DNA of 64,000 nucleotides from an uncultured bacterium (GCA_963843795.1 CAWJLW010000006.1:558001-622000), one strand, 5' to 3'. Shown: positions 51,125 through 55,692, numbered from the stretch's first letter. The notes: generated by a model not told the origin, from the letters alone. A program made the numbers and translations.

Positions 51125-52042
51125 TTATTTTACGTATCGTGCGGGATGAGCCTCGAAAACTTTCTGGCAGTGTTGGGCACAGAAACCATAGCGGCGACCC
51201 CGATATTCGCTGGTGAATTTGGCTGAGTCGGTGACCTTCATGCCGCATATCGGGTCGGTACGCGAGGACAATTTGCTACCGGTTTTTGCCGCCTTTTTGG
51301 GCGCTCTGCCCGCATTAAATTTTCTGGCGGTTTGGGTCGGATACACAGGCGCGTGAGGCCGATATTGTATTATCCGTGCCACATCCTCAGCGACTGCTGA
51401 GCTTTGGATTTTCTCGACGACATGCAGAGCGCCATCGATGCCAGAACTGACGCCCGACGTAGTGATAAATTTGCCATCTTCGACAAAACGCACGCCCTGC
51501 ATCACGGTCGTTCTGGGGAACTCTTGCTGAAATTCCTCAAGCGCGAACCAGTGCGTGGTTGCCTTACGTCCGGCCAGCAATCCGGCTTTGCCCAGCACGA
51601 AAGCGCCGGTGCAGATCGACATCGTCATTCGAGACTCGCCGGATGCTTTCTTTATCCATTGCATAAACCGACCATTCGCGCTCAGCGCTTGCACAACTGG
51701 CATCGGTGCGCCCGGCATCACGAGAATATCGGGCCGCGGACAGTTGGCGATGCTATAGCGTGGTTGAATGTTCAAGACCCCGCTCTCACTATGAATTGGT
51801 TTGCCATTGATGCCGACGGTATAGATGCTGTAGGAACTGGGCGCTGTTCGCTCGGCCTTGACGAAAACGTCCATCGGGCCGGACAAATCGAGCACTTCCA
51901 TATTGTCGTAAAGTACAAATGCTACCTTGAGCGGCGTTGCGCTTACCGCTTTGGCCTCGCTTTTCTGCGCGAAAATGAGGCTGGAAAATGCGCCTGTGGC
52001 GCAAAATGTTAGAGTTGCCAGAACAACGTGACTAAATTTCAT
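51125..52042 (-). CDS. Secreted DJ-1/PfpI-family protein with a C-terminal YHS domain
   Basis: EVLDLSGP, SICTGA..GLLAGRKATTHW, TSGVSSGIDGAL; TDPICGMKV..YGFCAQHC..F..HPARY (YHS). Confidence 0.9.
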   Translation of the reverse strand: MKFSHVVLATLTFCATGAFSSLIFAQKSEAKAVSATPLKVAFVLYDNMEVLDLSGPMDVFVKAERTAPSSYSIYTVGINGKPIHSESGVLNIQPRYSIANCPRPDILVMPGAPMPVVQALSANGRFMQWIKKASGESRMTMSICTGAFVLGKAGLLAGRKATTHWFALEEFQQEFPRTTVMQGVRFVEDGKFITTSGVSSGIDGALHVVEKIQSSAVAEDVARIIQYRPHAPVYPTQTARKFNAGRAPKKAAKTGSKLSSRTDPICGMKVTDSAKFTSEYRGRRYGFCAQHCQKVFEAHPARYVK

Positions 52043-52070: not shown

Positions 52071-52826
52071 TCAGCGTGGTCGAAATGCGCCCTGACGTTC
52101 TTCCGGTGTGGCGCCCGCCGCGTTAAATAGCTGCTCGAAGCGTCCCGCTTTGGCGTGGCCATCGGCATACATTGAATTGCAAGTATCGAGATGGCGCTTA
52201 GACGACAATTCTTTGGTTGTATTGTTGGCGCCGTCCCAGACCAAAGCGCTCATCATCATTGATGCTTCTTCCGGCGGATTTCCCCAGTAAAATGGATGAA
52301 AATGATCGCCCGATGGCACGCCGGTAGTGGCGTCGGTGCGCTCGGACAAGACGATGACGCGCGCAGCTTCTTGGACTTTGGCCAGGTTGGAATAGCCATT
52401 GAACTTACCCGCCGAAAACCACGCGTTCAAAACGTAAGACGTGGTGTAGGGAGGCGCGGCAGGTGGCACGACCGCCGCGTTCCAGCGCGGCGAAGCATCG
52501 GATGGGCAGCGGAAAATCTGCACGCTTTTCAAATATGGTTGCGTCGAAGTTGTCCACGAAGATTGCGGCGTCATCGCCGTGCCGGTCATCGTGGTGAGTG
52601 GATACAATTCGTCGTTGTCCTGCGCATATTGCAAAAACCCCAGACCAATTTGCTTTAAGTTCGACAGGCACGAAGTGCGACGCGCATTCTCACGAGCGCG
52701 GGCGAAAACCGGAAACAAAATCGCGGCGAGGATCGCAATTATCGCTATCACGACCAAAAGTTCGATAAGTGTAAAGGCGCGACGACGCGCACCTTGTGGC
52801 GCAGCTTGCGCCGGGGTGAATTTCAT
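52071..52826 (-). CDS. Prepilin-type N-methylation / DUF1559 protein with an H-X9-DG motif
   Basis: [67 protein letters not shown] before ATG 52826. Confidence 0.92.
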
Positions 52827-52869
52827 AAAGTCTCCAAATAATTTTGTGGTGCGAATGATGGGATTCAAG

Positions 52870-53332
52870 TCAGACGCAAAAACACGGAGGCCCGCGCGAA
52901 GGCGGCTGTGGCAACGGTGCTACAGTGGGGAAAACGGGAAGCGAAGGCGCAAAAAGAATGCGCCGCGAGAAGGAGACTGCGAAGTGAAATGGGGCCGCTG
53001 CGCTGCTTGGCATGCCCAGCAAAAGACGCGCGAGACAAGTGCCGTGAAAAGTATCGTCAATGGAAGCGGAAAGCCATTGTCCGGTTGGCGAATAAAGCGC
53101 GCCTGCGGGCTTGACACACCGGCACAGGGGGCCACCGCCACATTTCGGCTTCCAAATCTGAGCGTGTTCGCTGTGGGTATCGGGGCAAGTCTGCCCCCAT
53201 CTCGCAAACGTGCCATGAGGGAGCGATCAATTGCAGCAGTGCGAAAAACACGACAAAGACACGCGCTGCAGGACGCAGCGCTATACACGCCAACGAACCA
53301 AAAATTTTGTCTTGACGCGCGTGCTGATTCAT
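52870..53332 (-). CDS. DUF2946/CruR-like leader protein ending PSRGPP, interrupted by a +1 frameshift near the C5 run at 53194-53198
   Basis: First frame: hydrophobic [21 protein letters not shown]. The +1 frame is open to TGA at 52872-52870: [48 protein letters not shown]. Confidence 0.6.
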
Positions 53333-53342
53333 GTCCCAACCT

Positions 53343-53351
53343 ATTGTAACA
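53343..53351 (-). promoter_or_regulatory. Extended -10 promoter for the leader ORF
   Basis: Minus strand TG-T-TACAAT, 10 nt before ATG 53332; flanked by the direct repeat CATGTCC at 53330 and 53350. Confidence 0.5.
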
Positions 53352-53435: not shown

Positions 53436-55692
53436 TTAGGAGATGCTTTTTGTCGGCGGCGCTGGCCCCAACACGTTGATTACGAAAGAAGCGGTGATGA
53501 TTTTTCCGGCTCGTTGGAACTGCGCCCAAACTTTGTAGGGGCCGGGCTTGAGAAAAATGGTGTGAAACATCACGTCTGGCCCACCGCGAAATGAAGGGGG
53601 CAGCGGCTTTTCAGTTTTCATGAGCGCCGCCATTTTGGACATCATCTGAGTGGCATCCATTTCCATCATTTCCATCATGTGCTTGCCCCGCATCGGGTGA
53701 ACGTGCAGATAAGTTTTGATATTCTTGTCCAGAATCACGCAATGGCCTAAAGCGCCCATATAAGGTTGCAAATCGTCGAGTGGCTGACCCTTTTTATTGC
53801 GCACCTGAAAGTGCAGCATGATCGGCTGGCCAACGCGAATCACACTGGGCATCGGCATCAACGCGACTTCGTAAGTTGGTCCACCACTGGCATCTGGCAA
53901 ACCTTCGGGCGCTGCGACCGAGCGATTGGTGATCCAAGCGTTATGTAAGACATCAGGCGTTAAAACGGGCGTGGCAGGTAGTGGGTTGTCGCCATTGACT
54001 TCGAATTCGTACACCTCGACCTCGTGGTCTCGCAGACCATCAGGGGTATAATCAGCGTAAAACCGATAGCGCCCGGCGCGCGGCAGTTGGGTGTGGATTT
54101 TGAAAATGCCCTTGCCCTGAAACATGGGATGAATGTGGGTATACCAGGAGAGATCGCTCGAAGCCACAATCATGTGCAGCTTTTTGGCGTGAACAACGGT
54201 GAAGTCGGAGACCGGTTCATCGTCTTCGCGATAATTGACTTTGATTGTCCAATTCACTCGTTGTCCAGCGCGAGGAACTGAGGGCGAAGGAGAAAACTGA
54301 AGGCGCGTAAAAACGGTGTTGGCTGTTGTATAATCCAGCAGCGAAAAATTTTGCACATTGCCCAGCGGCATGGGAGCAACGGAAGCTGAATGAGTAGTCA
54401 GAGTTTTTGCCGCCGCGCCCTGCATCGAAAAGCTCTGCCAGTTGGCGAGGCCAGCAAACACTGCCAATCCTGTCATCCCTAATAATCCGACAGCGGCCAC
54501 GCTGGTAGTGCGTGGCCAGGCAGCCTTTTGTGCGGGGAAATTCTGGGCCGCTTTGCGCTGCAAAAAGCCAAAGATTGGAATCGCAACGCCGCACAGCAAA
54601 GCCAAGCTCAGCACTGTGCCAAACCAAAACCCAATCAAACTCAGTCCCCAGTTTTCCAACGGCAAAAACGCGCGTGCCAACTGCATCCCGGAAAAGGCCA
54701 AATATCAGCCCTCCCAGCAGCGCATACAGCCGGAGGCGAGCGAGCCGCTTTTCGTTTTGGGGCGACGCGGCGGTGTCGCGGGCCGCGCAATAACTTTCGA
54801 TGGACGCCAGCCCCAGACAAAAAGCGCTGGCGAAAGCGAGCAAATTGCTTGATAACGAGAAATTTCCTGTCGCTCCCCACCCCAGCGCGACCGCATAGGC
54901 CGCAACGAAAATTGCTAAAACTGATAATCTCGCGCGCGTCATAAGGCGAGCGCCCGACAGCAGCAGTGCCAGCACAAAAGCGACGTGCCACGGCCCGTCC
55001 CAAAAGTTCAGCAGGCCCATCAAGAAGAACTGGCGACCGTTTTGAAGTGGTGTGACTATGGTTAAAGCGGGTTCAAAGGTAGCCAGAGACTGTGCGGTTT
55101 GGCCACTGGTTATCATGCGGGTTTGGTCTGCCAGAATGACTTTCAAGACTGGCAATGGAAAGATCGAGAACAGAGTGGATTGAATTTGTAATGGAGCCGC
55201 TGCCAAGTTCGGAGCGCGCGGGAAGCGCAGTTCGACCTCAAAGCGCGTTTGCTCGGGGTCTTGACGATTATCACGCCATATCTTGAAACCGGTGATCTGT
55301 CCGTGCAAACGCACTTTGTTCTGCGTGAGAATCAAGTGTTTGGCAAAATAGCGTTCCGCTCGCTGGTGAACAGCCGTTGGCAGTTGTAAATGGGTTTCCT
55401 GGCCCGTTGGAAGAGGAGCTTCCTTATTAGCGTGCAGAACATCGCGCAATTCATTACCGCTGCCCGTGATGCGGGCGTCCAGAAAAGTGTGGCTGGGAAA
55501 AATCTGCATCTGCGACAGAGAAAATCGCCACCCCGGATGGCTGGCCCAGACGGGAACACACAGCGTGCCCAGTAACAAAATCTGCAACAGCAATGCCCGG
55601 CGCGCCAACACGATACACCGCACTTGAGCGTTCAATCGGCAAGCATTCATCAATTGATTTAATGCAACATTTCTTGAAATGAGATGATTCAT
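53436..55692 (-). pseudogene. HupE/UreJ-like membrane protein fused to a His/Met-rich periplasmic metal-binding domain; apparent +1 frameshift near 54692-54695
   Basis: ORF 54217-55692: signal ..VWA|SH, FFLMGL..GPWHVAFVLALL, GGLIFGL. It continues in ORF 53436-54701: ..LIGFWFG, VHAKKLHMI..YTHIHP, YMGALGHCV..YLHVHP, MMEMMEM. Confidence 0.6.

Follow-up and report, generated by a model that had tools for sequence, protein, structure and literature searches.

The window, a 64,000-nt stretch of DNA from a soil bacterium of the Abditibacteriota, carries on its minus strand a small gene that is split between two reading frames. One frame of 91 codons starts at ATG 53332 and ends at 53057, and a second is open from 53226 to a stop codon at 52872-52870, with the TTG at 53022 as its earliest usable start. 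A +1 step at the G5 run (53194-53198) joins both frames into a Cys/His-rich protein of 153 residues with RGPP near its C terminus and all the motifs named in the first-pass annotation; in its repaired form the gene, hereafter the leader, occupies 53332-52870 and encodes about 154 residues. The N-terminal part in frame A (53192-53332) has a positively charged N terminus, a hydrophobic helix (residues 25-39) and the motif WHVC (53204-53215). The C-terminal part in frame B (52873-53189) has a Cys/His loop, a CLA motif (53029-53037), a mildly hydrophobic second segment and a Pro-rich stretch. The RGPP codons CGC GGG CCT CCG (52885-52896), the predicted ribosome-arrest site, lie 47 residues past the Cys of CLA and are followed by a four-codon tail (CFCV) with its TGA stop (52870-52884). 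Between this stop and ATG 52826 of the next gene is a spacer of exactly 43 nt (52827-52869), the distance that the first-pass annotation had given as approximate, which includes the Shine-Dalgarno sequence of that gene (GGAGA, 52831-52835). A Pfam search with all three reading frames and the read-through gave no family for the leader. Frame C, which has a 139-aa ORF at 52920-53339, was considered as the gene and rejected; the homologue matches fall in frames A and B.

Ten nucleotides 5' of the leader ATG, at 53351-53343, the minus strand reads TGTTACAAT, a sequence match to an extended -10-like box (TGnTACAAT) and a candidate promoter. The sequence behind the earlier claim that the gene has its own promoter of this type is present, but a two-hexamer promoter scan lists no promoter at the site. 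The box is not followed by a Shine-Dalgarno sequence, which suggests that the untranslated 5' end of the leader mRNA is very short or absent. When the 25 nt before the start codons of 18 homologues (see below) were inspected along with 53333-53351 of the window, most of the homologues were seen to lack a Shine-Dalgarno sequence and many to have a TATAAT-like box 9-15 nt 5' of the start codon, a pattern suggestive of leaderless or very short-leader mRNAs.

The predicted target of the leader is a 251-aa gene on the same strand (52071-52826) that encodes a prepilin-type N_methyl segment (PF07963, 34.3 bits) and the start of a DUF1559 domain (PF07596, 45.3 bits). Further downstream come a gene for a DJ-1/PfpI plus YHS-domain protein by Pfam (51125-52042, minus strand), a gene that 6 of 18 relatives likewise have behind DUF1559, and a VIT plus VWA gene. 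Upstream lie weakly matching HupE/UreJ-like and YtkA-like genes, the second of which (421 aa, 53436-54701, minus strand) encodes His-x-His-Pro-Met motifs and stops at a distance of 103 nt from the leader. The HupE/UreJ-like ORF (491 aa, 54217-55692) and the YtkA-like ORF overlap by ∼485 nt in different frames of the minus strand. Within the overlap (54217-54701) the end of the first ORF does not resemble coding sequence, and membrane helices are found in the beginning of the second; the two may be one gene split by another assembly indel.

A six-frame search of 60 related genomes found matches in 21 of the 26 genomes of the same family (best E 2.6e-29), many of them spanning residues 14-151 in one open frame with no stop codon. 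We aligned 18 single-frame homologues (133-179 aa, 17 genomes) with the window read-through, and on this evidence the hidden gene that had been proposed from ATG 53332 and the joined frame is real. Invariant across the 19 sequences, in window numbering, are A37, H41, C43, C99-L100-A101, L104, R146, P148 and P149. The first three belong to AP-x-W-H-V/I-C, which closes the hydrophobic segment; the CLA motif stands in the context C-L-A-x-L-L-x-x-M-P, and the C-terminal motif is R-G/A-P-P. Every N terminus has 2-7 Lys/Arg against 0-2 Asp/Glu, then a 15-residue hydrophobic window with a hydropathy of at least 1.8, and WHxC stands at the helix end in all 19. The loop from WHxC to CLA varies in length (48-81 residues) and composition (2-5 Cys, 1-9 His and 0-8 Met), whereas the Arg of R[G/A]PP always stands 47 or 48 residues after the Cys of CLA. 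R[G/A]PP itself, followed by a tail of 1-16 residues, is likewise present in every aligned member. The first-pass annotation had made its case depend in advance on homologues that conserve both the hydrophobic N-terminal segment and the proline tail, and the homologues found keep both.

The same features recur in a wider collection. A profile of the 18 homologues gave 60 matches at E<=0.001 (51 at <=1e-10) among 1.84 billion representative proteins, of which we examined 59 and left out one protein of 3093 aa. CLA is present in 58 of these 59 representatives, and R[G/A/S]PP in all of them (35 RGPP, 23 RAPP and 1 RSPP) with tails of 1-9 aa; of the 58, 47 place the Arg 47 residues after the Cys, 10 place it 48 residues after and one places it 46 after. 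Because all four proline codons are used at both the first and the second Pro, selection acts on the peptide rather than on the RNA. Thirteen of 16 loci lie in genomes named Abditibacteriota, Abditibacteriia, Abditibacteriaceae or Abditibacterium, and as far as these sequences go the family appears to be Abditibacteriota-specific, small and unnamed. An earlier reading of CLAR in the window copy as a decayed CxxC is ruled out: C-L-A is invariant in 19 of 19 and found in nearly all representatives, with a second Cys at that place in no aligned member, and since CLA is kept family-wide and CxxC is absent, CLAR is the signature of the family and not a sign of decay. An AlphaFold2 model of a homologue, computed from the 18-row alignment, is poor and largely disordered (pLDDT 59, pTM 0.29); it has a helix at residues 5-38, and no metal site is visible in it.

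The break between the two frames lies at 53190/53191, where the window is two bases short of a contig from another dataset. A public soil-metagenome run (X1) contains contigs nearly identical to the window, 7 of the 11 matching pieces being at least 99% alike; runs X2 and X3 gave no contig matching the stretch. Across the break runs record 8 of X1, a 104-nt contig with a word depth of 5 (53137-53219). It differs from the window only by two additional letters at 53190/53191, and with these the frames join to read ...CEMGASTCPDTH..., for a total of 154 aa. This record is the only contig across the break, run X1 may or may not be independent of the source of the assembly, and a gap in X1 coverage (53246-53800) takes in the N-terminal part of the leader. 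In the alignment to an intact relative of 154 aa (64% identity), there is a single gap of one residue exactly at the break. The break is probably an assembly error, a two-base shortfall, as indicated by one short contig of depth 5; the alternative is a real strain difference. The first-pass annotation had placed the fault in the length of the G5 run at 53194-53198. The frame is indeed restored in X1 record 8, but the G5 run is unaltered there, which rules out a slip in the run as the cause.

The two open frames do meet beside the G5 run, as they would if a programmed +1 ribosomal frameshift joined them there, yet all 18 homologues run in one frame, X1 record 8 is in frame and no slippery site is conserved, which makes such a frameshift extremely improbable. 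The frameshift in the assembly could also mark the window copy as a decaying pseudogene, with the DUF1559 operon now expressed without its leader, and the weak pairing between leader tail and downstream start in this copy (rank 15 of 19; see below) points the same way. We regard this as very unlikely: the only contig from another dataset to span this site is two bases longer there and keeps the frame open, every residue that is invariant in the family is retained, and the alignment to the intact relative is interrupted only at the break. Decay of the window copy, which had been suspected from the sequence, is not borne out.

A relation to DUF2946 (PF11162), the family of CruR and CutF, had also been proposed. 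The repaired window protein matches none of the Pfam HMMs at E<=10, that of DUF2946 included, and no member of the leader family exceeds the curated DUF2946 cut-off of 23.7 bits. Weak PF11162 matches occur in 4 of the 19 aligned members (best 19.5 bits) and in 11 of the 59 database representatives (best 22.0 bits), all of them below the cut-off, and these run collinearly across the whole profile (from positions 1-3 to 117 of 117). A PF11162 search of the genome of the window gave no match, and among 41 genomes the only match over the cut-off is at a different locus, a CFLC...NRGPP gene in genome G009. That gene (L025 1375-1803; contig C1, about 61.6-62.0 kb) represents a separate, small Abditibacterial family with 47 residues from its first Cys to the Arg; one of its members passes the DUF2946 cut-off at 24.7 bits, and 6 relatives were found in a large protein collection. 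Between the leader family and this 6-member CxxC...RGPP family, hhalign gave no significant relation, with a probability of 3.9% for a match confined to the last 25 columns.

CruR (Bp2923) of Bordetella pertussis is the prototype of DUF2946, whose marks are an export signal, a CXXC motif, a RAPP with three residues after it and a spacing between CXXC and RAPP that is conserved (PMC9426467). Measured against these, the leader family has the C-terminal motif (R[G/A]PP in 19/19, R[G/A/S]PP in 59/59) and the spacing (47-48 residues in 19/19 and 46-48 in 58/58, against 49 and 46 residues from C90 and C93 to R139 in CruR; PMC9426467). Hydropathy and charge bias in 19/19, and the helix at residues 5-38 in the poor structural model, would fit an export signal or an N-in transmembrane segment. 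CXXC is absent, the fourth residue of C-L-A-x never being Cys in the 19 aligned members. We therefore file the leader family, by its sequence, as built like DUF2946 and not as a member of it; either common descent or convergence may account for the likeness.

The genes beside the leader vary within a narrow range. At 10 of the 19 loci the first downstream gene encodes a secreted AhpC-TSA/Redoxin protein (six checked by Pfam, four assigned by sequence likeness) and at 6 a DUF1559 protein; in the other three it is an HMA gene (two loci) or a DUF7282 gene (one). DUF4198 and more HMA genes occur beyond the first gene. An orthologue of the DUF1559 gene is among the next two genes in 12 of the 18 relatives, in agreement with the first report of a leader before a prepilin-type gene, and the metal context that had been assumed for it is matched by the YHS, HMA, DUF4198, AhpC-TSA/Redoxin and HupE-like neighbors. 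In 11 of 18 relatives, as judged from a rough ORF map, the closest ORF upstream of the leader runs on the other strand, and hence the leader would usually head its own unit. In the genome of the window (4.3 Mb), DUF1559 (PF07596) gives 55 matches, a large paralogue family; of these genes only the one in the window follows a leader of the R[G/A]PP family.

The strongest new evidence on the mechanism comes from predicted RNA pairing, for which we compared 30 nt from the first Pro codon with the start region of the next gene (-18 to +12) at the 19 loci. Cognate duplexes have a mean energy of -13.3 kcal/mol against -7.8 kcal/mol for non-cognate ones, and 0 of 10000 permutations reach the cognate mean, in a test that overstates independence since the loci are kin within one family. 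The cognate partner ranks best at 9 loci and among the top two at 15 of the 19. When 18-nt windows over leader and spacer were compared, the best binder of the start region begins -7 to +2 nt from the end of Pro-Pro at 12 of 19 loci. In minimum-energy folds the tail pairs with the Shine-Dalgarno/start region at 18 of 19 loci, including those with spacers of 158 and 229 nt (the spacer is 15-75 nt at the other 17), and the 5' arm of the hairpin begins -11 to +4 nt from the end of Pro-Pro. These folds have a mean z of -2.2, with 11 of the 19 loci, again kin, below -2. The paired sequences differ between loci and therefore covary.

The window copy is the exception to this and among the weakest of the 19. 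Its cognate duplex (-7.1 kcal/mol) ranks 15th of 19; tail/start pairing is absent from an 82-nt fold (z +0.55), and a 161-nt fold gives a 5-bp stem between CUCCG (52885-52889) and UGGAG (52832-52836) with a z of -0.55. Pairing is also weak at one other locus (L024). Record 4 of X1 (52736-52925) shows no differences from the tail and spacer of the window, so the weak pairing is not an assembly artefact, and because the masking hairpin is weak here the mechanism proposed below rests on the family and not on this locus alone. The strongest binder of the start region in the window copy (-13.1 kcal/mol) is AGUCUCC at about 52986-52992 (minus strand), ∼104 nt 5' of the end of Pro-Pro and a perfect 7-nt complement of the downstream GGAGACU, a match that may be due to chance. 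A terminator-like hairpin (CGCGG/CCGUG, 52882-52897, minus strand) with a U-rich run (UUUU) to about 52872 falls within the RGPP and tail codons and would not form under a stalled ribosome.

The control of downstream genes by the C-terminal arrest of a nascent leader is well established. SecM, MifM, ApdA and ApdP arrest at RAGP-, RAPP- or RAPG-type C-terminal motifs, are released by pulling force and control translation of the next gene; the leader family shares an arrest-type motif at its C terminus before the next gene. These proteins monitor Sec or YidC and precede sec or yidC genes, whereas the leader family has metal-handling partners and conserved His and Cys residues. In CutF of Rhodobacter capsulatus (cutFOG, DUF2946), the stalled ribosome opens a stem-loop that otherwise covers the ribosome-binding site of the next gene. 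CutF is small and exported, has a metal site of Cys and His and carries a proline arrest motif at its C terminus, features that the leader family is predicted to share, and the same masking design is predicted at 18 of the 19 loci here. The two differ in their motifs (WHxC...CLA in the leader family), in the route to the membrane (a predicted membrane anchor in place of the Sec signal peptide of CutF) and in their targets, a multicopper oxidase for CutF against pilin-like, Redoxin and HMA genes.

In CruR a 162-bp spacer separates the leader from its target, and stalling relieves Rho-dependent termination (PMC9426467). CruR and the leader family are alike in an export signal (putative in the leader family), a Cys motif at a set distance from RAPP, a short tail (three residues in CruR), the first position in metal operons and AhpC_TSA partners. 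CruR has CXXC, the longer spacer and Rho, as opposed to a single Cys, mostly short spacers and a predicted hairpin that masks the ribosome-binding site (RBS). Both RAPP and RGPP bring about robust arrest, and toeprinting of CruR places the Pro-Pro pair in the P and A sites (PMC12992588). What the first-pass annotation says about CruR, DUF2946 and these arrest motifs agrees with the papers.

The pairing of such a leader with a DUF1559 gene had been put forward as undescribed, which it is not. Fujiwara et al. (2025) catalogued small ORFs ending in RAPP or RGPP before genes for TonB receptors, YcnI, PCu(A)C, PepSY, DsbA and thioredoxin-type proteins, and the source data of their Fig. 4B list 112 RAPP against 68 AAPP upstream ORFs before a "DUF1559 domain-containing protein", a 6.46-fold enrichment (PMC12992588). 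DUF1559 goes unmentioned in the main text of that paper (PMC12992588). The catalogue and the leader family have in common small secretory or membrane RAPP/RGPP ORFs before metal, thioredoxin-type and DUF1559 genes, but among the entries listed most of those linked to DUF1559 carry CxxC-type motifs, and four motif strings of the leader family were not found in the searched part of the supplement (PMC12992588). A literature search for DUF1559 together with copper found no paper.

We propose, with moderate confidence and from sequence comparison, that the leader is a membrane-anchored, Cys/His-rich R[G/A]PP protein that would stall its own ribosome and in this way let a metal govern how the following gene is translated. 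Its N terminus would insert with the N-in orientation, so that WHxC and the Cys/His loop come to lie on the non-cytoplasmic side. The ribosome would arrest with the two Pro codons in its P and A sites, as in CruR. A ribosome covers roughly 9-10 nt beyond Pro codons in these sites, and in the leader mRNAs the first ∼9-10 nt past Pro-Pro, which the arrested ribosome would cover, are the 5' arm of the predicted hairpin. The hairpin would then melt and expose the downstream start, as in CutF, SecM and MifM. From the spacing of 47-48 residues, the CLAxLLxxMP segment would at arrest lie ∼40 residues from the peptidyl-transferase center, just past the exit tunnel. The duration of arrest might be set by metal on H41, C43, C99 and the loop, or by insertion of this segment into the membrane; such insertion, or a metal-dependent link to H41/C43, could supply the pull by which the arrest is ended. 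Our best guess for the metal that is sensed is copper, given the YHS and HMA partners.

Two other readings of the family have to be weighed against translational unmasking. The stalled ribosome might instead block Rho or a terminator, so that control would come from transcriptional read-through and not from unmasking of the RBS. CruR, the best-studied look-alike, works along such lines, the terminator-like hairpin with its UUUU overlaps the RGPP codons of the window (52897-52882), and the masking hairpin of the window is weak. However, the spacers of 15-75 nt at 17 of 19 loci are far from the 162 bp of CruR, tail and start covary in their pairing at 18 of 19, and the terminator-like match is one of 4 against 3.0 in shuffled sequences, with no U run at that place in the sequence of genome G001; the short spacers would fit unmasking of the CutF type better than the Rho-dependent scheme, and we consider termination control quite unlikely. 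That the gene simply makes a finished small membrane protein with no regulatory role for its R[G/A]PP end, for instance a metal chaperone or a partner in thiol chemistry for the Redoxin, HMA or DUF1559 proteins, would suit the conservation along the whole protein, the invariant His and Cys residues, the membrane helix and the constant adjacency to the same secreted partners. It leaves unexplained the 47-48-residue spacing to a motif that proteomes otherwise avoid, and equally why pairing with the start of the following gene covaries, and it sits poorly with the largely disordered AlphaFold2 model, so we hold it to be unlikely as a full account. The roles of finished protein and of arrest leader do not exclude each other.

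A more specific version of the proposed arrest leader, which we advance as speculative and rather doubtful, is a hybrid sensor of force and metal of an undescribed type. Metal would bridge His41 and Cys43, at the outer end of the helix, to the single Cys99, and thereby decide whether the hydrophobic segment headed by Cys99, held 47-48 residues from the arrest point, enters the membrane and pulls the chain off the stalled ribosome. Were this hybrid sensor to exist, the DUF1559 protein would come under metal control as one member of a set that handles copper, beside Redoxin, HMA and DJ-1/YHS proteins, and the huge DUF1559 family of unknown role would gain a function.

The class of arrest leaders to which we assign this gene is already known. 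The novelty lies in the family, in a sensor motif with a single Cys, in the rigid spacing and in a well-supported predicted masking hairpin. Metal-sensing stalling leaders have so far been studied in two proteobacterial cases that work in opposite directions, and the family carries this kind of leader into a lineage that has barely been cultured, and its sensor motif is another one: WHxC together with a CLA that has one Cys, in place of CxxC. The fixed spacing of 47-48 residues and the covarying hairpin near the Pro-Pro codons make an unusually clean natural data set, and unmasking of the RBS is directly testable. One of about 54 pilin-like DUF1559 paralogues of the genome is tied to metal-handling partners, a functional lead that is tempered by the presence of the pairing in published source data (PMC12992588).

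Three further leader-like ORFs were seen in the genome of the window (G000), all on the minus strand. One of 143 aa at C2:818-1273 (L046 815-1246) has a hydrophobic N terminus and many Cys residues, ends in ...RHGPPLRSGRAPPVV and directly precedes a 78-aa secreted peptide with CCK-rich repeats. Another on the same contig (C2:17578-18111; L047 3076-3540) is Cys/His-rich, 154 aa long and ends in ARAPPVLA; the ORFs after it (616 aa and at least 431 aa) resemble, by the look of their sequences, TolC-type outer-membrane efflux and membrane-fusion proteins. The third, of 149 aa (C6:2150683-2151135; L048 3181-3630), has ARGAPP and a terminal GRAPPFSG. The next ORF on its strand (at least 90 aa) lies ∼330 nt further on and by the same kind of inspection resembles the large subunit of carbamoyl-phosphate synthase, and this leader-like ORF may be an orphan.
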